Shown: positions 52,083 to 64,000, counted from the first letter of the stretch. The stretch: DNA of 64,000 nucleotides from Bacilli bacterium (GCA_045627525.1 JAZQNW010000011.1:4549-68548), one strand, 5' to 3'. Numbers and translations: made by a program. Notes: a model not told the origin generated them from the sequence alone.

Positions 52083-52094
52083 TAGGTGAAGTAT

Positions 52095-52547
52095 ATGTAT
52101 TCTGTTAATAAGAAAAAAGTAGTTAAGAAAAAATGGAAATTTAAAGATTTTTCAGATATAGAAAATATTTCAGGTTTTTTGATGCCAAGTAGAAAAGCTT
52201 TTATAATTGGTGATGATAAAATTAGTAATGTAGTTGTTGTGTCAAAAAAATTGGCTCAGCCTATTGTTTCGACAGTTGTTTCTAAAAAATATAAAAAACT
52301 TATTAATGAATTAACAGATTTATTATTAACAGATGATACAGATGATGGTGACTGCTATAGAGAAGCTCTTAATCAAATTGAAAGATTTAGAATGATAGTA
52401 AAAAATAAATACAGAGATTTTTTATTAGACGAAGAGTTAAAAATTATGGCTAAGCAGTTAAAATTATTACAAAAAGAAGCTAAATTACAGTTTGCAGAAA
52501 TACAAAATAGTATGATTATGTATAATGAAAATTATAGGAGTAGGTAG
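52095..52547 (+). CDS. Hypothetical protein
   Basis: ORF directly after trmD with AGGTGA RBS; helical C-terminus. Confidence 0.65.
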   Translation: MYSVNKKKVVKKKWKFKDFSDIENISGFLMPSRKAFIIGDDKISNVVVVSKKLAQPIVSTVVSKKYKKLINELTDLLLTDDTDDGDCYREALNQIERFRMIVKNKYRDFLLDEELKIMAKQLKLLQKEAKLQFAEIQNSMIMYNENYRSR

Positions 52548-52627
52548 GAATTATTAAATTAATTCCTTTTTTACTTGTTAATTTTTTGTTTTTGCGTTAT
52601 TCTATCTTACTAAGAAGAGGCATTATT

Positions 52628-53398
52628 ATGAAAAAGAAGAAGTTTATAATATTAATGATTATTTTATTTTTTATGGTTATAGAATTTATTTTTATAATTA
52701 ATTTTAGTAGTGATGATGCTATTTTATATATTGATAATAATAATGCTAATTATAAAGTTTATTTAAATAATGGTGATATATATAGTTCTAATAATAAAAA
52801 TGGTGCTTTTAATGGAAAATCGATAGATAGGATAAAAATAGATTTTAATTATATTACTACATATAAAGAAAGAGCTAGCTATAATGGTAATTATTATTTA
52901 AAATCAAGATTTAAAATATTAAATGATGAAGATAAAGTATTATATACCAAAGAAGAAAATTTAACAGAAAAAAAGTCTATTGATAATGTTGATGAAATTA
53001 TAAGTACTAGTATTAATTATAAAGAATATTTAAGTAATTATAAGAAAAAAATGGAAAAATATAACGGTATAGCTTTAGTTGATATTGTAATGTGTATTGA
53101 TACTAATGGGGTTACAAAAGATGTTTCGGCTGTTACTATTCCCCTTACTGATAATTTAATAGTTATTAATTACAATGCTATGGGAAATTTCATAAATAAT
53201 AGAGCTGGTAATTTTAATTATTTCTATTTTGCATTTTTAATAGTAGGAATTGTATGTATATTAATTAATTTAAATCCAAAGGAAGAAGATATAGAAATAT
53301 TAGATGTTTTTTCACCAGTTCAGTTGTCATTTATGGATGTGTTTGGAGATTTGAATGAAAAAACTATTGATACAGAAGAAGAACTTGAAATTATATAG
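52628..53398 (+). CDS. Hypothetical membrane protein (TM at both ends of an extracellular domain)
   Basis: Basic N-terminus plus TM, second TM near C-terminus. Confidence 0.65.
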   Translation: MKKKKFIILMIILFFMVIEFIFIINFSSDDAILYIDNNNANYKVYLNNGDIYSSNNKNGAFNGKSIDRIKIDFNYITTYKERASYNGNYYLKSRFKILNDEDKVLYTKEENLTEKKSIDNVDEIISTSINYKEYLSNYKKKMEKYNGIALVDIVMCIDTNGVTKDVSAVTIPLTDNLIVINYNAMGNFINNRAGNFNYFYFAFLIVGIVCILINLNPKEEDIEILDVFSPVQLSFMDVFGDLNEKTIDTEEELEII

Positions 53399-53406
53399 TT
53401 AAAGTG

Positions 53407-53500
53407 TTGATTTTTAATACTTCTTGTGATATAATCTTGGTTGTCAGTTGAGATGATCCGCTTTTCTTATGATTATGATCATTGGTAAATATATTTTGAG
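53407..53500 (+). promoter_or_regulatory. rplS promoter and L19 leader
   Basis: TTGATT-17-TATAAT(53430-53435); GATGATCCGCT..ATGATCATT pairing typical of the L19 leader. Confidence 0.6.
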
Positions 53501-53513
53501 AGGAGAACTTAAT

Positions 53514-53861
53514 ATGAGTAATATTATTGACAAGATTAATGCTAAACAAATTAATCCTAATGTTCCTGAATTCCGTGTTGGTGATACTGTTAGAGTTGAT
53601 GTTAAGATCATCGAAGGTAAAAGAGAAAGAATCCAAGCTTTCGAAGGTGTTGTAGTTGCTCGTAAAGGTGGAAGTGTTTCAGAAACATTTACAGTACGTA
53701 AAGTATCAAGTGGTGTTGGAGTAGAAAGAACTTTTCCAATTCATTCACCAAAATTAGCTGGAATCACAGTTGTACGTACTGGTAAAGTTAGACGTGCTAA
53801 ACTTAACTTCCTTAAAGACAGAGTTGGCGGATATCGTATTAAAGAAAGAGGACAACAATAA
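53514..53861 (+). CDS. rplS: 50S ribosomal protein L19
   Basis: [34 protein letters not shown]. Confidence 0.97.
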
Positions 53862-53903
53862 TAAAATAAGGCCAATGCCTTATTTTTTGTTTAGGTGATA
53901 TTT

Positions 53904-54407
53904 ATGGATGAGAATAAAAAAGGTTATATAAAAGAATATTTATCATATTTTATAGTTATAATTGTAGTTATTTTAATAAAAATATTTATTGTTACTCCAA
54001 TTAGAGTTAATGGTCCTTCGATGAATAATACTTTAAAAAATAATGATATTATGATTTTGAATGAGATTAGTTACAAGTTTAATGGATTAAATAGATTTGA
54101 TATAGTAGTAGTACGATATAATGATGAACATTTAATTAAAAGAGTTATTGGTTTGCCTGGTGATACAATAAAATATGAAAATGATGTTTTATATGTAAAT
54201 GGAAAAAAAGTTAAAGAAAATTTTGATCATGCTGAAACTGCTGATGTAGAAGAGATTAAAATTCCAGAAGGTGAATATTATGTTATGGGAGATAACAGAG
54301 TTAATTCAACTGATAGTAGAATTATAGGTACAATTAAGTTAAAAGATATTAAAGGTACTACAAAATATACAATTTTTCCATTTAAAAGGTTTGGTAATAA
54401 AAATTAG
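53904..54407 (+). CDS. lepB: Signal peptidase I
   Basis: GPSMNNT Ser, LIKRVIGLPGD Lys, GDNRVNSTDSR. Confidence 0.95.
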   Translation: MDENKKGYIKEYLSYFIVIIVVILIKIFIVTPIRVNGPSMNNTLKNNDIMILNEISYKFNGLNRFDIVVVRYNDEHLIKRVIGLPGDTIKYENDVLYVNGKKVKENFDHAETADVEEIKIPEGEYYVMGDNRVNSTDSRIIGTIKLKDIKGTTKYTIFPFKRFGNKN

Positions 54408-54511
54408 ACACATTATAGTGTCTTTTTTTTTCTATTTAATTATAAAATATATTAAAATTTATATGAAACATTGATATTTAATGTTATAATTTTAATAGTA
54501 GAGGTGATTAT

Positions 54512-56119
54512 GTGGGTAATATTAAAAGTTATATAAAAATTCCTATTGTTTTTAGTGCTATTATACTTAGTATTTTTATATTTTTTGTCTTTGACATTAT
54601 TTTCAGACTAGTTAATGAATATACTGATAGTCAAGTGCTTACGATTTTATCTTCATATGAAAATAAAGTTGTTGAAGATGAAGTTAAAGCTTATGCAAAA
54701 AGCATTGATAAAAAAGTAGAATTTGAATATATGAGTGATTTAGATATAGTTGATGAGTTGAATAGTCATAGTCATTATTATGATGCTGTGTGGATATCTA
54801 ATTCTATGTGGTTATATATGCTTGATAATTCTTATTTAACTAGTGATTCAAAATCTATAAGTATTAGTCCTATTGTATTTGGTATTAAAAAAAGTAAAGC
54901 CCAAGAATTGGGATTAGTGAATAATGATAATATAACAAATACTACAATTCTTAATTTGATACGTGAAAAGAAAATAAAATATGTAATGAATTCTGTTACA
55001 CAAACTAATTCTGGTGCTACGGCGTATTTAGGATTTTTATCATCCCTAGCTGGTAATCCAGAGGTTTTAACTAAAGAGATGTTAGATGACGATAATTTGA
55101 TTTCTAATATGATTGATGTTTTCTCTGGAGTTGAAAGAGTTAGTGGTGATGAAGGGTATCTTCAAGAGATGTTTTTAAATGATAGTAGTTATGAAGCTGT
55201 TATTGCATCTGAAGTGACATTAATTGATATTAATAAAGCATTAAAAAATAAAGGTGAAGAACAACTATATTTAATTTATCCTACTGATGGTGTAGCGATA
55301 AATGATTCAACATTTGCTTTTATTAATAATGACAGAGAAGGTATGAAAGAGACATTTTTAGATATTCAAGAATATTTATTAAGTGATAAAGGGCAAAAAA
55401 TTCTTGAAAATAGTGGTCAGCGTACTTGGTATGGTGGTATAAGTGATAAAAGCAATTCTAAAGTATTTGATAAAAATTTAGGTATTGATACTACTAAGTA
55501 TTTAAATGTAACTAAATTCCCTTCAAAAGATGTTATTACTTATGCTTTGAATTTATATATTGATAAATTAAGAAAACCAACTCATGTAGTCTTTTGTTTA
55601 GATTATTCTGGTTCTATGGAAGGCAGTGGAGTATCAGATTTGAAAGATGCTATGAATTATATTTTAAATTATAATGAAGCATCTATTGATAATTTGCAAT
55701 TTTCTGAAAAGGATAAAATAACTGTTATTACATTTAGTAGCAAGGTTAACAATGTGTGGTCAACTGATAATGGACATGATACTGAACAGTTAATAAATAA
55801 TATTGAGAACGAATCTCCAAATGGCGCTACAAATTTATATGATGCTACAATTAAAGGGCTTAATATTTTGAGTAAAGATGATGATACATATACTAAAACT
55901 GTTATTGCTATGACAGATGGTGAAATTAATATGGGATCGTTTGATGATTTAAAATCTACTTATAGAAAATTAAAAAATCCAATACCAATTTATAGTATTA
56001 TGTTTGGTCAAGCTAATGAATCACAACTTGAAAATATTGCTGCACTTTCTAATGCAAAAGTATTTAATGGTAAGTCAGGATTGTTAGAAGCTTTTAAAGA
56101 AGTAAGAGGATATAATTAA
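54512..56119 (+). CDS. Membrane-anchored solute-binding-fold plus vWA domain protein
   Basis: N-terminal TM; SBP-like YDAVWISNS, SPIVFG, TNSG, YP; C-terminal vWA MIDAS DYSGS, GATNLY, MTDG. Confidence 0.85.
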   Translation: MGNIKSYIKIPIVFSAIILSIFIFFVFDIIFRLVNEYTDSQVLTILSSYENKVVEDEVKAYAKSIDKKVEFEYMSDLDIVDELNSHSHYYDAVWISNSMWLYMLDNSYLTSDSKSISISPIVFGIKKSKAQELGLVNNDNITNTTILNLIREKKIKYVMNSVTQTNSGATAYLGFLSSLAGNPEVLTKEMLDDDNLISNMIDVFSGVERVSGDEGYLQEMFLNDSSYEAVIASEVTLIDINKALKNKGEEQLYLIYPTDGVAINDSTFAFINNDREGMKETFLDIQEYLLSDKGQKILENSGQRTWYGGISDKSNSKVFDKNLGIDTTKYLNVTKFPSKDVITYALNLYIDKLRKPTHVVFCLDYSGSMEGSGVSDLKDAMNYILNYNEASIDNLQFSEKDKITVITFSSKVNNVWSTDNGHDTEQLINNIENESPNGATNLYDATIKGLNILSKDDDTYTKTVIAMTDGEINMGSFDDLKSTYRKLKNPIPIYSIMFGQANESQLENIAALSNAKVFNGKSGLLEAFKEVRGYN

Positions 56120-56128
56120 GGTGATGTT

Positions 56129-56752
56129 ATGAAAAATAGTGAAGTAGTATCAGCAGTAATTGGTGGAACATTTTTTGCGGTACCATATTTGGCATTAGCT
56201 GTTCCTATCGTGCCATCATTAGCTATGGGTGCAGCAGCTTTTGCAGCAGGAGAATTAGTATTTAAAAAAAATGTTATTCCGGAATTAAAAGAAAGTAATT
56301 TTAATTTGTATCAGACGTTAGAAAATGCAAAAAAACAAAATAATCATATTCTTGATATGATTCCAATGATTGAAGATGAAAATATAAGAAAAGATCTTAA
56401 TGAAATAAATGATACAGTTACTAAAATAGTTAAGACTATTGAAAAAAATCCTGATAGAGAGAAAAAGATAAAGAACTTTTTTGATTATTATTTACCAGTA
56501 ACAGTAAAATTAGTTGATAGGTTTGATGAAATAGAAAATCAAAAAATAAGTTCTAAAGAAAGTAAAAAATTTTATGAGTCAACAAGTAAAACTATAAAGG
56601 AAATAAATGATGTTTTTAAACAATTTTTAAATAATTTATATGAATCAGATATGATTGATACTAATGTAGAAATAAAAGTTCTTAATTCAATGCTAAAATC
56701 TGATGGTTTAGATAAAAATAATTTAAAAGTAGAGGAGGATAATCATGAATAA
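56129..56752 (+). CDS. XpaC-like (5-bromo-4-chloroindolyl phosphate hydrolysis family) membrane protein
   Basis: N-terminal TM hairpin, FFDYYLP, NLYESDMID..VEIKVL; lies in a telA cluster. Confidence 0.8.
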   Translation: MKNSEVVSAVIGGTFFAVPYLALAVPIVPSLAMGAAAFAAGELVFKKNVIPELKESNFNLYQTLENAKKQNNHILDMIPMIEDENIRKDLNEINDTVTKIVKTIEKNPDREKKIKNFFDYYLPVTVKLVDRFDEIENQKISSKESKKFYESTSKTIKEINDVFKQFLNNLYESDMIDTNVEIKVLNSMLKSDGLDKNNLKVEEDNHE

Positions 56753-57947
56753 GAAAAAGATAGTTGGTATTTCAATATTTGTTGCTTTAGTTTTAATAAT
56801 TATTTTAATTAAAGTATTTGGTAATGGTAATACTAATGGTAAAATTTCACATAAAAATTTAAAAGATGTATATGTAGCAACAGGTGGTGGAAAAGAAAAT
56901 TTCTTAGCTGATGAAAGAGTAAATGAGATTTTAAATGATAAATATGGAATTAATGCTGTATTTGATTCTTGGAGTAATGGTAAAACAGTTGTTAAACCAT
57001 TAATTCGTGAATCGATAGGGCAAGGTGATTCATATATTGCAGAACAACTTAATAATGGTGATAGCAGTATTGGTATAAATTCTGATGGCGTTTCTAAGTA
57101 TGATGCTTTGTTTACCTCAGATCAACGTTTTTATGATTATTATAAATTAGCTCCAAATAGATCTTTGGGTGAGGCTGAACGTTATACTGTTTTAGAGGGT
57201 GGACTTACACTAAATACACCTATAGTTATTTATTCATGGAAAGGTGTTGCTGAAAAATTAATTAGTGAAGAGATAGTTACTCAAACTGATGGTGTTTATT
57301 ATATTACTAATATGGATAAACTTATTGATTATATCTTAAATGGTAAAACATGGAACGATATTGGACTTACTGATTTATATGGTAATGTTAATATAGCATC
57401 AACTGATCCAGTTACATCTTCACCAGGAGCAACTTATTATGGATTATTATTATCTATTTTAGGTAAGGGTCAAATATCAGATGAAAATTTAGATTCTGAT
57501 CTTTCAAAATTAAAACAATTTTATCAAAAATCTGGGTATATGAATAATACACCTGCTGATTTATTTGAAAGATATTTAAAAACAGGAATGGGTGGAGAAC
57601 CTATGATTGTAGATTATGAAAAAAGTTTGATTGATTTTATTAATTCTAATCCTAATGGATTTAAGCAAGTAAAAGATGATATTGTTGTTTTATATCCAAA
57701 ACCAACTATTTGGAATTCACATTGCTTTGCTGCATTTAGTGATAATGGTAAGGAATTGTATAAAGCATTACAAGATCCAGAAATTCAACAAATTGCTTGG
57801 GAAAAATATGGATTTAGAACTGGTATAACTGGTGGAAACTATGATGTTTCATCAATAGGTATTGCTATACCAAAAACAATAAATAGTACTGTTAGTAGTC
57901 TTAAAATGGACTATTACAATAAATTGATAGGTTATTTAAGTGAATAG
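56745..57947 (+). CDS. Membrane-anchored solute-binding-fold protein
   Basis: N-terminal TM; TPIVIYSW, STDPVTSSPG, IVDYE, VVLYPKPTIWNSH, KYGFR. Confidence 0.75.
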   Translation: MNKKKIVGISIFVALVLIIILIKVFGNGNTNGKISHKNLKDVYVATGGGKENFLADERVNEILNDKYGINAVFDSWSNGKTVVKPLIRESIGQGDSYIAEQLNNGDSSIGINSDGVSKYDALFTSDQRFYDYYKLAPNRSLGEAERYTVLEGGLTLNTPIVIYSWKGVAEKLISEEIVTQTDGVYYITNMDKLIDYILNGKTWNDIGLTDLYGNVNIASTDPVTSSPGATYYGLLLSILGKGQISDENLDSDLSKLKQFYQKSGYMNNTPADLFERYLKTGMGGEPMIVDYEKSLIDFINSNPNGFKQVKDDIVVLYPKPTIWNSHCFAAFSDNGKELYKALQDPEIQQIAWEKYGFRTGITGGNYDVSSIGIAIPKTINSTVSSLKMDYYNKLIGYLSE

Positions 57948-57957
57948 GAGGTATTAA

Positions 57958-59100
57958 ATGGCTGCATTAGAATTAAAAGTAGAAGAAAAAGATGAAAAGG
58001 TAACAAAATTAGTAGAGGGTGAAGAAAAATTAACAGAGGAAAAAATAGAAAAGTCGCTTAATTATGATGAATTAAGTGCCACTGAAAAGAAAGCAGTAGA
58101 TGAGTTTAATGAAAAAATAGATGTTTTCGATTCAACTCAAATATTACAATATGGTTCTGCTGCTCAAAATAAAATTTCAGAATTTTCTGATTCTATTTTG
58201 AAAGATGTAAAAACAAAAAATACTGGTGATACAGGTGAATTGTTAGCTAATTTGGTTGCACAAATTAAAAGTTTTGATACATCAGTTGGAAGTGAACCAA
58301 AAGGTTTATCCAAATTATTCCATAGTGTTAAAAGAGAATTCGATACTATACTTGCTAAGTATAATAAAATAGAAAATAATATTGATACAATTGAAAAAGG
58401 ACTTGATAATAATAAAATTCAATTATTGAAAGATATTAGTATTTTTGATGAAATGTATCAAAAAAATTTAGATTTCTTTAAGGAAATATCTTTATATATT
58501 ATTGCTGGTGAAAGAAAATTAGATGAATTAAAAAATAAAACATTACCAGAGTTGAAGAAAAAAGCAGAAGAAACTAATGAACAATTAGATATTCAAAAAG
58601 TTCAAGATATGGAAGCTCAAATTAATAGATTTGAAAAGAAGATTTATGATTTAAAGACTACACGAATTATTTCTATTCAAATGGCTCCACAAATAAGATT
58701 ATTACAAAATAATGATGCTGAACTTGTTGAAAAAATCCAAAGTTCTATTACTAATACTATTCCATTATGGAAAAATCAAATGGTTTTAGCTTTAGGTATA
58801 AGTGATTCTAAACGTGCTTTAAAACAACAACAAGCTGTTTCAAATTTAACTAATGAGATGTTACAAAAGAATAGTGAAACATTAAAACAAGGTGCTTTAG
58901 AAGTTGCTAAGGAAAGTGAGAGAGCTATAGTTGATGTAGAAACACTTAGAAAAACTAATAAAGATTTAATCGATACTTTAGATGGTGTTATTAAAATACA
59001 TGAAGAAGGTCGTGCTAAGAGAGCTGCTGCTGAAGAAGAACTAAAGAGTATTGAAAAAGAATTAAAAGATAAAATATTAGAGATAAATGTAGAAAAATAA
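57958..59100 (+). CDS. telA: Toxic anion resistance protein TelA/KlaA
   Basis: QYGSAAQ, Q.APQIRLLQNN, NTIPLWKNQM, LKQGA, DVETL motifs. Confidence 0.92.
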   Translation: MAALELKVEEKDEKVTKLVEGEEKLTEEKIEKSLNYDELSATEKKAVDEFNEKIDVFDSTQILQYGSAAQNKISEFSDSILKDVKTKNTGDTGELLANLVAQIKSFDTSVGSEPKGLSKLFHSVKREFDTILAKYNKIENNIDTIEKGLDNNKIQLLKDISIFDEMYQKNLDFFKEISLYIIAGERKLDELKNKTLPELKKKAEETNEQLDIQKVQDMEAQINRFEKKIYDLKTTRIISIQMAPQIRLLQNNDAELVEKIQSSITNTIPLWKNQMVLALGISDSKRALKQQQAVSNLTNEMLQKNSETLKQGALEVAKESERAIVDVETLRKTNKDLIDTLDGVIKIHEEGRAKRAAAEEELKSIEKELKDKILEINVEK

Positions 59101-59104
59101 AAAT

Positions 59105-59129
59105 AAAGCATTATTTTAATGCTTTTTTT
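59105..59129 (+). terminator. Terminator-like hairpin after telA
   Basis: AAAGCATTA-TTT-TAATGCTTT plus T-tract. Confidence 0.55.
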
Positions 59130-59139
59130 AGGAGGTTTT

Positions 59140-60741
59140 ATGGACAATAATCAAACTTTGAAAGATATATATAAAGATTTCTTTGGTGGTAGTTTAAGTG
59201 ATTTTTCTACTAATTCAGATAGTGATTTTAAAGTAGATGAAGAGATAGTAGAAAATGATGAAATTAATTATATAGATAAAATAGATGAATTATTTATCAG
59301 TGATGAGTCTAAAATATTATTAAAGAAAATTATTAGTTATATGGAAAAGTATGATAAAAAGGAAGAAACTAATTATATTAGTTTTAATATTTCTTTAGAA
59401 ACAGATGATAATAATTTGAATAAAGAAATTTCTGATATATTAAATTATTATGCTAAAAAGTATAATTATGTTGATGGAAATAGTATCACTAATGTTACTT
59501 TATATAAATTAGAAAAGCCTGATGCTTTAACTGAATTTTATAATAAAAACTCTTTAATTAATATAACGGATTTAGATGCTCTTGAAATGAATGATGTTAA
59601 TTTTAAAAAGAAGTTTTTCTATATTTTAAAAGAATCTATAGGTTTGAAAAAGATTACTATTGTTACAGGCAAAAAAGAAATATTAAAATCTTTTTTACAA
59701 AACGATGATAGATTGTCTGATAGTTTTTGCTTTAATTTATTTGGTAGTATTCCAACTAATAATGATGTTTATAATGATATTTTAGATAAGATTGATAACA
59801 TGAACTTTGATAAAGAATTTAATATAAAACTATTAGATTATATTACTAATACTTATTCTAAAAGTAATTTGGATTATAGTAGTTATGTTAATGATTTATA
59901 TAAATATATTTCATTTAATAAAGATCTTCCTAAAGTAGAAGAGGTTAAGTCAGTTGATGAAGTATTTAAAGATCTTAATGAATTAGTTGGTCTTGAAAAA
60001 GTTAAAAAGACTTTATATGATTTAGTAGATTTAATTACTTTAAAAAATAAAACGCATGATGATTTGAAAATTAATAATGTTAATTTACATATGGTGTTTT
60101 TAGGTAATCCAGGTACTGGTAAGACTACTGTTGCTAGAATGATTTCAGAAATACTTTATGATTTGAAATATATTAAGCAAAATAAATTGATAGAAGTTAG
60201 TTCTAAAGATTTAGTTGCTGAGTATGTAGGCCAAACAGCAGTTAAAACAATGAATGTAGTAGAAAAAGCACTTGGAGGTATTTTATTTGTAGATGAAGCA
60301 TATGCATTAGCTGATAAGAATGGTGAAAATACTTATAATGGTGAGGCAATAGCAACTCTTATAAAAGCTATGGAAGATTATCGCGATAATTTAGTTGTTA
60401 TTTTTGCCGGTTATACTAAAGAAATGCAAGATTTTTTAGATTCAAATTCGGGAATTGTTTCTAGAATAGGTTATACCTTAGAATTTGATGATTATACTAA
60501 TCAGGAATTAATTGATATATTTAAAGGTATGGTTACAAAAGCTGGATTTATATTAGAAGATGGTGCTTTAGATGAAGTTAATAAATTAATAGATGAACAT
60601 AGGATTGATAAGAATTTTGGTAATGCAAGATTTATTAGAAATGTATATGAAAAGTCAATTATTAATCATGCTTCAAATACCAAAAATAATAAGAGTAAAA
60701 AAATTCTTAAAACAATTACAAAAAAGGACATTAAATATTAA
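59140..60741 (+). CDS. CbbX/SpoVK-like AAA+ ATPase with long N-terminal extension
   Basis: HMVFLGNPGTGKTTVAR, GILFVDEAY, IFAGY, FGNAR. Confidence 0.88.
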   Translation: MDNNQTLKDIYKDFFGGSLSDFSTNSDSDFKVDEEIVENDEINYIDKIDELFISDESKILLKKIISYMEKYDKKEETNYISFNISLETDDNNLNKEISDILNYYAKKYNYVDGNSITNVTLYKLEKPDALTEFYNKNSLINITDLDALEMNDVNFKKKFFYILKESIGLKKITIVTGKKEILKSFLQNDDRLSDSFCFNLFGSIPTNNDVYNDILDKIDNMNFDKEFNIKLLDYITNTYSKSNLDYSSYVNDLYKYISFNKDLPKVEEVKSVDEVFKDLNELVGLEKVKKTLYDLVDLITLKNKTHDDLKINNVNLHMVFLGNPGTGKTTVARMISEILYDLKYIKQNKLIEVSSKDLVAEYVGQTAVKTMNVVEKALGGILFVDEAYALADKNGENTYNGEAIATLIKAMEDYRDNLVVIFAGYTKEMQDFLDSNSGIVSRIGYTLEFDDYTNQELIDIFKGMVTKAGFILEDGALDEVNKLIDEHRIDKNFGNARFIRNVYEKSIINHASNTKNNKSKKILKTITKKDIKY

Positions 60742-60780
60742 TGTTCTTTTATGTTATAATTTAGTTAGGGAGATAAAAAT

Positions 60781-61323
60781 ATGAAAATTATTTATGAAAA
60801 AGCGAAAATAGAAGATGCTTATGATTTTGAAGAGGTTGTTGCTAATTCATGGAAAGAAACTTATGCTTCATTATTACCTGATGAATATTTAGAAGAAAGG
60901 GTTAATAATGTAGCTTTAAGAGTTCCTAAGTATGAAAAAAATTTTTTTGATACTAGAATAAAATCTTTTGTAGCAAGAGATAAAGAAAAAATTGTTGGTA
61001 TTTTAAAATATGGTATTTCAGATAATAGTAAATATAATGATTATGGTTATATTCAAGCTTTGTACGTTTTAAAAGAATATCAAGGATATGGTATTGGTAA
61101 AGAATTATTTAAAATGGCAATTTTAGGACTTAAAGAATTGGGTTATACTAAAATAATGTTGGAGTGTATGTGTGGTAATGAGACAATTAACTTTTATAAA
61201 AAATATTTAGGTAAAGTAGTTGAAACTATTGATTTTTCTATTAATAGAGTTGGAAATGTAAGAGCAGATGTTTTGATATTTACGGATTTAGATGAAACAT
61301 TAAAAAAAATATCGTTTAAATAG
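60781..61323 (+). CDS. GNAT family N-acetyltransferase
   Basis: SWKETY, LYVLKEYQGYGIGKEL, FYKK. Confidence 0.9.
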   Translation: MKIIYEKAKIEDAYDFEEVVANSWKETYASLLPDEYLEERVNNVALRVPKYEKNFFDTRIKSFVARDKEKIVGILKYGISDNSKYNDYGYIQALYVLKEYQGYGIGKELFKMAILGLKELGYTKIMLECMCGNETINFYKKYLGKVVETIDFSINRVGNVRADVLIFTDLDETLKKISFK

Positions 61324-61331
61324 CGATATTT

Positions 61332-61925
61332 TTATTTTTGATTATCAAAGTCGATATTAATTAATAGGTTTTGGGTTACTGCTTCTCTTTCATTTTTTAT
61401 TTCACTAAAATTATAAATAAATAAGTCACAAGCTTCCCAAATAGAGAAAGAAAATATAAAACTAAATACTTCACGAATAAATGCTGCCTCTTGAATTCCA
61501 TATATTTGAATGTAACAAATTACTAGAAATAATCCTAAGCATAGAAGTGTTATTATTTTATTTCGGCATTTAATATAAGCTTTTTCAATTTTATATAATT
61601 CAATAGCATAGTGTTGTTTTACTATTTGCCTTATCAAATTTTGTTTATCTATATTTATTGAAATTCCTTTTATATGTAATTTTATTTGAATATCATTTTC
61701 TAGCATTGATGTTTTTCTTTCTATATAATCATATATTTCTGGATTTAAATCAGTTTGTTTATTTGAAGTTTTTGGGTCAATTAATTCATTTATATTGTCT
61801 ACTGTTAAGTATATATCAGCAATATTAGAAGTTGATAAAAATTCTTTTTTTATGTAGTTATCTAGATATTCTCTTTTAGAATATTGTTTTATCTTTTCAT
61901 TCATTTTCTTTTTAAACTCATTCAT
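61332..61925 (-). CDS. Hypothetical membrane protein
   Basis: 197 aa, two C-terminal TM segments. Confidence 0.7.
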   Translation of the reverse strand: MNEFKKKMNEKIKQYSKREYLDNYIKKEFLSTSNIADIYLTVDNINELIDPKTSNKQTDLNPEIYDYIERKTSMLENDIQIKLHIKGISINIDKQNLIRQIVKQHYAIELYKIEKAYIKCRNKIITLLCLGLFLVICYIQIYGIQEAAFIREVFSFIFSFSIWEACDLFIYNFSEIKNEREAVTQNLLINIDFDNQK

Positions 61926-63429: not shown

Positions 63430-63538
63430 AGTATTACTTTTATTTAATGAAAAGCATATTAGTTTAAAATATGCTTTTTTTATGTTATATTAATATTATA
63501 TTTTTATTTATAAAAATTTTTTGAAAGTGGTGCTTTTT

Positions 63539-64000
63539 ATGAATATACCTAAAGTTAATTTTAAAAAGATGTCTTTGGATGAAAATATAGAAACAATTAA
63601 ATGGGCTTTTTTTGAAGATGGTGAAGATTTGGACGTTCATAATTTTACTATTCAATATTTTCCCGAATTAAAAGATATAGATACAAATTTATCAACGGAT
63701 GAAATTAATATAAGAATAGCTGAAGTCGTTGCTAATGATTATTATCAATATGAAAAAAGAATTGAATCTGAAGTTGAAAGATATAATAAATTATGGGAAT
63801 CTTTTAACGATAAATATTTTGAAACTTTATTTGATTTTTTTGATTGTACTTTTCCTAGTGATATTAATGAAATAGAGGCATCTGTTGGATTAATTCCCGT
63901 TTTTCCAAGATACTTGGATACTTTAACTTTTTCTGTATCAACAGGTATTGATGATGATAAATTAGTTGAAATAGTAGCACATGAGACACTTCATTTTATA
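63539..64000 (+). CDS. 5' part of a putative zinc metallopeptidase-like protein (truncated by window end)
   Basis: ATG 63539, open to the end; terminal AHETLHF HExxH motif; not in ORF track. Confidence 0.65.
   Translation, partial: MNIPKVNFKKMSLDENIETIKWAFFEDGEDLDVHNFTIQYFPELKDIDTNLSTDEINIRIAEVVANDYYQYEKRIESEVERYNKLWESFNDKYFETLFDFFDCTFPSDINEIEASVGLIPVFPRYLDTLTFSVSTGIDDDKLVEIVAHETLHFI

Follow-up and report, generated by a model that had tools for sequence, protein, structure and literature searches.

A five-gene TelA cassette in small-genome gut Bacilli combines a predicted extracytoplasmic binding-protein pair with XpaC, TelA and an AAA+ ATPase

We analysed a 64,000-nucleotide stretch of the genome of a Bacilli bacterium (GCA_045627525.1 JAZQNW010000011.1:4549-68548; hereafter, the window) that carries a compact cassette around the tellurite- and envelope-stress-associated gene telA, with all of its genes on the plus strand, as are all window features given below unless stated otherwise. 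An earlier note on this stretch had pointed to four linked genes at positions 54512-59100, and these are indeed present: g1 (54512..56119), which encodes a 535-residue protein with a substrate-binding protein (SBP) domain of the SBP_bac_11 family and a von Willebrand factor A (vWA) domain; g2 (56129..56752), of the XpaC family (PF10112); g3 (56745..57947), which encodes a signal-anchored protein of class-II SBP fold; and g4 (57958..59100), which encodes TelA (PF05816). A fifth gene, the AAA+ ATPase gene g5 (59140..60741), had been overlooked. The gaps g1-g2, g2-g3 and g3-g4 measure 9, -8 and 10 nucleotides and all four genes have strong ribosome-binding sites, while g5 starts 39 nucleotides after telA, where a GGAGG ribosome-binding site serves the ATG at 59140, its probable start in an open reading frame (ORF) that is open from 59119.

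The predicted upstream boundary of the cassette is the intrinsic terminator of lepB (54406..54423), a 6-bp GC-containing stem followed by a T9 run. Between it and g1 lies a promoter-like site with an extended -10 element (ATGAAA-16-TG-TATAAT; 54463..54490), predicted to be the cassette's own promoter, and, judged by eye, a terminator followed by an extended -10 of the form TGnTATAAT or TGnTATACT recurs in most of 14 printed upstream regions of related loci. This layout suggests transcription by a housekeeping sigma factor rather than by way of a dedicated stress regulator. A palindrome scan of 63 related loci returned no conserved operator upstream of g1, and no Rfam element was found in 53300-61400. 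Downstream, the unit is bounded by a separate promoter that serves the GNAT gene following g5. Judged from sequence, the unit comprises the five genes g1-g5, and not four.

The g1 product begins with a transmembrane (TM) segment (residues 4-37), followed by the SBP_bac_11 domain (residues 52-302, Pfam E = 3e-7), which lies in a class-II binding domain of about residues 40-330, and by the VWA domain (residues 359-519, E = 4e-17). The SBP part carries the motifs SSYEN (54650-54664), DAVWISNS (54782-54805) and TQTNSGA (54998-55018). The metal-ion-dependent adhesion site (MIDAS) of the vWA domain is complete, with D364-x-S-x-S, T440 and D469 encoded in DYSGS (55601-55615), as the T of GATNLY (55823-55840) and as the D of MTDGE (55910-55924), and across 74 homologues its conservation exceeds 90%; the anchored SBP fold with an intact MIDAS vWA domain that the earlier note had described is thus borne out. 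Weak matches of this vWA domain in the PDB are to those of the inter-alpha-trypsin-inhibitor type. In the Clostridial, Sphaerotilus and Deinococcus orthologues of g1, a lipoprotein signal with a lipobox (LTGC, FSGC, SAC, NSC, LSGC, LGGC or LLGC) takes the place of the TM anchor, which puts the SBP-vWA protein outside the membrane.

The g3 product also has one N-terminal TM segment and gives no match in Pfam. Its AlphaFold2 (AF2) model, built on 89 diverse homologues, reaches a predicted local distance difference test score (pLDDT) of 92 and a predicted template modelling score (pTM) of 0.87, and Foldseek aligns it to class-II cluster-D SBPs at E ~1e-11 and template modelling scores of 0.6-0.67. 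The structural matches comprise the ferric-binding proteins FbpA/FutA, a sulfate-binding protein, ModA and a phosphonate-type SBP, and among them is also 6lkg, the sensor SBP of a two-component system. Sequence comparison shows, moreover, that g3 and the SBP domain of g1 are paralogous: hhalign matches the latter to the g3 family over 258 columns with a probability of 98.7% (E = 1.9e-16). The second anchored SBP-fold protein proposed for this locus is therefore well supported. Motifs common to the two domains (GSEN/GGEK after the first strand, D-x-V/L-W-P-x-S-S, SP(V/I)V, T-x-x-SNSG, Y-E and Y-P) probably correspond to typical SBP pocket positions; in g3, the motifs are GGGKE (56883-56897), STDPVTSSPGA (57399-57431), VDYEKS (57609-57626) and LYPKPTIWN (57690-57716). 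For these domains an anionic ligand is a reasonable guess, which we treat as putative, since the ligands of their closest relatives in structure are anions, or iron accompanied by a synergistic anion.

All 89 diverse g3 homologues combine a short positive N-terminal tail with a single TM segment, and none is a lipoprotein. In the metagenomic protein P0153, a SARP-type winged helix-turn-helix and a BTAD domain are followed by a TM segment and then by a domain of the g3 (SBP2) family, the layout of a one-component regulator. This fusion fixes the SBP2 domain on the outside of the cell and has it serve as sensor input; the sensor fold of the cassette is here wired directly to transcription. The extracellular placement of the SBP pair, an inference of the earlier note, thus gains support from both this fusion and the lipoboxes of the distant g1 orthologues. 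As a separate observation, a first-lobe insertion of about 30-40 residues (g3 residues ~77-118; 56970-57100) is present in the small-genome Bacilli and missing from the Clostridial homologues; it is modelled with a lower pLDDT of 73-86.

The two remaining genes of the four-gene core are confidently assigned to the families that had been named for them. The g2 product matches XpaC/Halogen_Hydrol (PF10112) at E = 2e-23, with 84.1 bits against a cut-off of 29.8, and consists of an N-terminal hairpin of two TM segments (hydrophobic stretch at residues 5-45) and a helical, predicted cytoplasmic domain with a conserved FFxYYL motif; by the positive-inside rule, both ends of the protein are probably cytoplasmic. 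Its gene precedes telA on the same strand, separated from it by g3. The g4 product matches TelA (PF05816) at E = 4e-117, with 391.5 bits against a cut-off of 30, and is the only TelA of the genome. No TM segment is found in either TelA or the g5 product. For TelA, AF2 yields an all-alpha model of low confidence (pLDDT 61), in which helices extend over 83, 108 and 49 residues. The best fold matches of this model, none of them significant, repeatedly include pore-forming toxins of the ClyA family and F-BAR domains, a likeness that we take as a lead at the level of the model. No match to PspA/Snf7 appeared in 55 TelA sequences even at E <= 10, other weak Pfam matches of TelA were dismissed as coiled-coil noise, and the PDB holds no sequence-level relative of the TelA or XpaC family.

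The g5 product contains, at residues 269-533, an AAA+ module of the CbbX/SpoVK/EccA type with an AAA_lid_6 domain. Its Walker A motif (GNPGTGKT, 60103-60126), Walker B motif (ILFVDE, 60280-60297) and pore loop (YVGQT) are all intact. E-values are 4.5e-50 for its match to CbbX and 6e-43 for that to EccA1, and the module is 40-50% similar in motif content to CbbX (the red-type Rubisco activase), EccA (of the type VII secretion system) and SpoVK. It differs from them in its genomic partner, TelA, and in its N-terminal domain (residues 1-268), which is neither a TPR domain, as in EccA, nor absent, as in CbbX and SpoVK. This domain is fast-evolving and has no match in Pfam or the PDB. When aligned to the protein's own AAA module with hhalign, it gives a colinear but weak match (E = 0.022, probability 2%) that sets NYISFNISLETDD against Walker A, SLINITDLDAL against Walker B and KKITIVTGKKE...FL against sensor 1; the protein may plausibly be a tandem AAA protein whose first copy is dead. 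A MoxR-vWA chaperone pair was considered and rejected, as the AAA+ module is of the CbbX type and not MoxR (AAA_3), and the vWA domain is predicted to be extracytoplasmic, not cytoplasmic.

Relatives were collected by a pattern scan with an 18-sequence g3 alignment over species-representative genomes, in which at least 590 stretches encode a g3 relative. The best 80 of these at least 590 loci were analysed, all of them close relatives (65-78% identity) in metagenome-assembled genomes (MAGs) of small-genome gut or rumen Bacilli. All five genes occur in the order g1-g2-g3-g4-g5 in 67 of the 80, with the exact pattern in 64, and the remainder are mostly cut by a contig end. Gaps are mostly short, and the flanks of the 80 loci fall into 50 upstream and 43 downstream gene clusters. 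The constancy of the five genes amid such variable flanks argues that the cassette moves or persists as a unit.

Genome searches at the level of class and phylum gave 3-4 matches, all from the organism's own family, and more distant cassettes were instead found through contigs that encode homologues. Identities between the window and the Clostridial proteins are 33-40% for g1, 19-27% for g2, 32-36% for g3 and 42-46% for g4, which makes TelA the most conserved gene of the cassette. The order SBP-vWA, XpaC, SBP2, TelA is kept in all six long distant contigs, each time with unrelated flanks and no AAA+ gene, and one short distant fragment agrees with it; carriers include Faecalicatena contorta, Lachnospiraceae and a MAG labelled Treponema. 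The four-gene core, which had been hinted at computationally, is on these comparisons widespread, and the AAA+-bearing form is a lineage-specific variant. The four-gene unit of the earlier note, which had named a lack of conserved order as grounds for refutation, therefore stands as a core, and falls short as a description of the unit in the window.

Members of the cassette family are also found on other branches and on mobile or plasmid-borne DNA. A megaplasmid of Sphaerotilus sulfidivorans has the permuted order SBP2-TelA-SBPvWA-2TM protein, and Variovorax carries the cassette family too. One Clostridial copy (locus L092, 1856-17056) sits among genes for a SymE toxin, a holin, a serine recombinase, MobC and RepA_N together with IS21/IS3 genes, surroundings from which we infer that it probably belongs to an integrated element. 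Another (locus L093, 10335-17062) adjoins DUF2397/DUF2398/SMC-type genes, a set that we take to be Wadjet-II-like. As a single case, a gene for a PhoX-family phosphatase lies directly upstream of the permuted Sphaerotilus cassette (NZ_CP035710.1 3681-10324), which is curious given the anion-type SBP fold and the historical X-phosphate hydrolysis phenotype of XpaC.

Within the organism's own family, sampled with 201 genomes from 200 genera, g3 is present in 17 genomes and TelA in 16; the two sets essentially coincide, and the two genes lie next to each other. The cassette thus occurs in about 8% of the genera and is essentially their only source of TelA. Even within the genus its presence varies: one species has it at the same site downstream of lepB, another has rplS-lepB followed by different genes, and in a third the contig ends at the lepB site. 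None of the five genes has a paralogue elsewhere in the genome. By this distribution, the cassette is an accessory, self-contained trait.

The same sample speaks to the identity of g5. In NCBIfam it matches spore_V_K best (TIGR02881, E = 4e-74), but against the equivalogs for SpoVK, CbbX and EccA it scores 249, 218 and 202 bits where the cut-offs are 423, 459 and 467, all of which it misses. Full-length orthologues of g5 are confined to genomes with the cassette, where they come immediately after TelA; another 14 genomes have paralogues of the AAA module only, and 175 of the 201 have no SpoVK-like gene. This cassette-tied phyletic pattern, together with the score of 249 against 423 bits, identifies g5 as a component of the cassette rather than as the SpoVK of sporulation, and SpoVK orthology was rejected on both grounds.

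We also asked what the SBP-fold proteins could serve. Both have the attributes of SBPs, namely a class-II fold, a predicted extracytoplasmic position and a TM or lipid anchor. In agreement with the earlier note, the Pfam scan found no ABC (ATP-binding cassette) permease or ABC ATPase in the operon, and none is present in the 67 complete five-gene loci or in seven distant loci. In the whole genome (1.15 Mb, 94% complete) there is one type-I permease of the BPD_transp_1 family (C13:144123-144932), and the operon to which it belongs, a NitT/TauT-type system (C13:142405-144932), has its own NMT1-like SBP and its own ATPase. A cassette with no permease, in a genome whose lone permease is already provided for, argues that g1 and g3 are not transport SBPs; the cognate permease elsewhere, which the earlier note had allowed for, was not found in this genome. 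Adjoining the importer (C13:139922-144932) are a sortase-like gene and a gene for a 523-residue repeat surface protein with a C-terminal anchor, so that the organism seems to be walled and to possess very few importers.

The closest known counterpart of the cassette is the xpaC-telA (xpaC-yaaN) pair of Bacillota, as found in B. subtilis, L. monocytogenes (lmo1966-1967), E. faecium and L. lactis (llmg1115), which likewise encodes a PF10112 protein with a two-TM hairpin and a PF05816 protein on the same strand, with xpaC upstream, and presumably acts at the cytoplasmic membrane. Unlike that pair, the cassette adds two extracytoplasmic SBP-fold proteins, one of them fused to vWA, places g3 between xpaC and telA and has the AAA+ gene after them. 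In E. faecium, deletion of xpaC lowers the daptomycin minimum inhibitory concentration 8-fold and redistributes anionic lipid domains, whereas deletion of telA alone or of xpaC and telA together has no effect, so that the sensitization by loss of xpaC needs an intact telA (PMC6811118). This pattern suggests that XpaC restrains or organizes TelA. More broadly, xpaC and telA belong to envelope-stress regulons of the LiaR/CesR type and affect tolerance to nisin, Lcn972, daptomycin and tellurite, in agreement with the link to Firmicute envelope stress drawn in the earlier note.

In their use of a binding-protein fold at the cell surface, g1 and g3 are reminiscent of the SBP-dependent receptors LuxP-LuxQ, TorT-TorS and GlnH-GlnX-PknG, in which a Venus-flytrap SBP senses and is coupled to a membrane partner. 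They differ in that the output would be XpaC and TelA rather than a kinase or transcription factor, and in that there are two paralogous SBPs, each with its own TM or lipid anchor. TelA itself has reportedly been predicted, in the abstract of a 2012 article by Anantharaman, Iyer and Aravind, to form membrane-linked sensory complexes that may contain periplasmic-binding-protein type II (PBP-II) and OmpA domains. The conserved neighbourhood of TelA and membrane-linked proteins of PBP-II fold described here matches that idea. Our literature search found no experimental paper on the cassette.

A looser likeness exists to the PspA/Snf7 operons of Ravi et al. 2024 (PMC11237479), which encode ABC components, PBPB-OmpA proteins and tandem AAA+ proteins whose N-terminal copy is inactive, and which have been read as systems for ATP-dependent membrane remodelling. 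Common to both are a helical cytoplasmic protein of membrane stress, a small TM partner, an AAA+ protein with an extra and possibly inactive N-terminal module, extracytoplasmic SBP folds and, as a proposal, membrane remodelling driven by ATP; the cassette, however, has a vWA domain and is without PspA/Snf7, an ABC transporter or OmpA. We regard the likeness as one of analogy and not of membership.

Taken together, the predicted topologies and the conserved gene order place the paralogous SBP domains of g1 and g3 outside together with a MIDAS vWA domain, XpaC in the membrane, and TelA with an AAA+ ATPase inside, as one unit. With moderate confidence, we propose that the cassette is an autonomous, non-transport transmembrane sensor-effector module, in which the SBP pair and vWA domain gate XpaC and TelA from the outside in and the AAA+ protein recycles TelA. 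In this proposal, the g1 and g3 products would act as a receptor pair for a small, probably anionic ligand and/or for a protein, wall or acidic partner bound at the MIDAS. The state of the receptors would pass, within the membrane, from their TM anchors to the two-TM hairpin of XpaC, and XpaC, as the published genetics partly imply, would hold or gate the helical TelA at the inner face of the membrane. As the effector, TelA would serve to protect or remodel the membrane when the envelope is attacked by agents such as cationic peptides, lipopeptides or toxic anions. The ATPase, added in the lineage of small-genome gut Bacilli, may then disassemble or recycle TelA or XpaC-TelA assemblies, by analogy with Vps4 and ESCRT-III and with the tandem AAA+ proteins of some PspA/Snf7 operons.

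Several observations weigh against this proposal. The low-confidence model of TelA gives no Foldseek match below E 1e-3, and its role as a membrane scaffold is for this reason only putative. XpaC has almost no extracellular loop, so that any transfer of signal would have to be intramembrane. Upstream of g1, the only promoter seen is an extended -10 of the sigma-A type, and no known stress-regulator site (Lia/Ces-type) was recognized there; with no operator either, regulation of the cassette by envelope stress is putative. Two loci also break the linkage between receptors and effector: one distant locus (L088, 3-2021) has SBP-vWA and SBP2 followed by rlmL, with neither XpaC nor TelA, and a megaplasmid of Deinococcus taeanensis has SBP2-SBPvWA-2TM protein with no adjacent TelA. 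The receptor pair can thus exist without the proposed effector alongside it. Finally, the patchy occurrence (17 of 201 genomes) and changing location of the cassette would be expected of an accessory or defence trait no less than of a stress module.

A bolder version of the proposal, which we offer tentatively and consider improbable as it stands, would make TelA the effector of a new class of ligand-gated membrane machine. The SBP pair and the MIDAS vWA domain would form an integrin-like outside-in receptor, XpaC an intramembrane gate and the tandem AAA+ protein a Vps4-like enzyme, and TelA may be a long-helical, membrane-active polymer, similar to PspA/ESCRT-III in function or akin to ClyA in structure. 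If true, such a machine would explain the effects of TelA and XpaC on resistance to lipopeptides, lantibiotics, tellurite and phages.

Among the competing explanations, the one that survives best, albeit as an unlikely one, is defence against phages or bacteriocins, with the SBP/vWA pair as the detector of an invader, TelA as a membrane-active and possibly abortive effector and the AAA+ protein as controller. A historical link connects loci of the ter/telA kind with the inhibition of phages and with resistance to colicins, and the kilA genes of RK2 are lethal to the host when derepressed. The patchy occurrence in about 8% of genera, with presence and absence within one genus and variable flanks, would suit such a role, as would the two Clostridial contexts with mobile and DUF2397/DUF2398/SMC genes. 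PADLOC finds a weak similarity of g5 to IetA/TRIP13, through generic AAA matches, but has no match for g1-g4, and no g3 homologue was found in phage records. The recurring fold matches of TelA to ClyA-family pore formers point the same way, although they are weak, non-significant and drawn from a low-confidence model. Unrestrained TelA is deleterious in E. faecium (PMC6811118), yet the published phenotypes of xpaC and telA concern envelope-acting antibiotics and not phages, and most copies of the cassette lie among ordinary chromosomal genes.

A role in surface adhesion or wall organization, with the MIDAS vWA protein as adhesin, the SBP folds as scaffolds and XpaC/TelA as an anchoring or stress-buffering device, seems to us very unlikely. 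It would account for the complete and highly conserved extracellular MIDAS, the gut or rumen association of the organisms and the weak structural matches to inter-alpha-trypsin-inhibitor-type vWA domains. Free-living soil and water organisms (Sphaerotilus, Deinococcus, Variovorax) nevertheless carry the cassette as well, wall-sorting and repeat domains are absent, and the strict linkage to TelA, the most conserved component, would be left unexplained.

We give still less credence to g1 and g3 being ordinary SBPs that feed a distant ABC importer, for which the system at C13:142405-144932 is the sole candidate, with XpaC and TelA as co-regulated neighbours. The nearest structures of the class-II cluster-D fold are indeed transport SBPs for oxyanions, iron and phosphonate, and TM-anchored SBPs occur in Gram-positive importers. 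Against this stand the loci devoid of permease and ABC ATPase and the candidate importer's own SBP and ATPase; moreover, a vWA fusion and a linkage to XpaC and TelA that is strict at 19-46% identity would be unexpected for transport SBPs, and P0153 uses the SBP2 domain as the sensor of a regulator. Least credible of all is that g5 is the organism's sporulation SpoVK, next to a four-gene unit by coincidence: it is the sole AAA+ protein of this type in the genome, its best NCBIfam match is to that family and the distant cassettes lack it, but the score well under the cut-off, the additional 268-residue N-terminal domain, the restriction of full-length orthologues to positions directly after TelA in cassette genomes where both flanks vary and the rarity of SpoVK-like genes in the family all speak against it.

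The cassette bears on a long-standing problem. TelA and XpaC recur in work on resistance to daptomycin, nisin, bacteriocins and tellurite, and the cassette gives a handle on what TelA responds to, as it offers candidate partners both outside and inside the cell, namely a receptor pair with its MIDAS site and a lineage-specific ATPase. Its core is present in the culturable Faecalicatena contorta, Sphaerotilus sulfidivorans, Deinococcus taeanensis and Variovorax, which makes the function of TelA directly testable. For the small-genome gut Bacilli, the cassette is an accessory trait retained in about 8% of genera despite genome reduction. A specialist in the comparative genomics of Ter and TelA would not be surprised by the cassette, and we see its value in the concrete entry that it provides to an old question.

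Beyond the cassette, the window holds a few further ORFs with no assignment. Two lie between trmD and rplS (52086-53398), one of 153 residues with a GTG start and one of 270 residues with a TTG start, and have no match in Pfam or NCBIfam. Downstream of the cassette, two others have no Pfam match: one of 197 residues on the minus strand (61332-61925), and one of more than 160 residues on the plus strand (63521-64000) that runs past the end of the window. The 153-residue ORF near trmD is found at the same position in two congeneric genomes.

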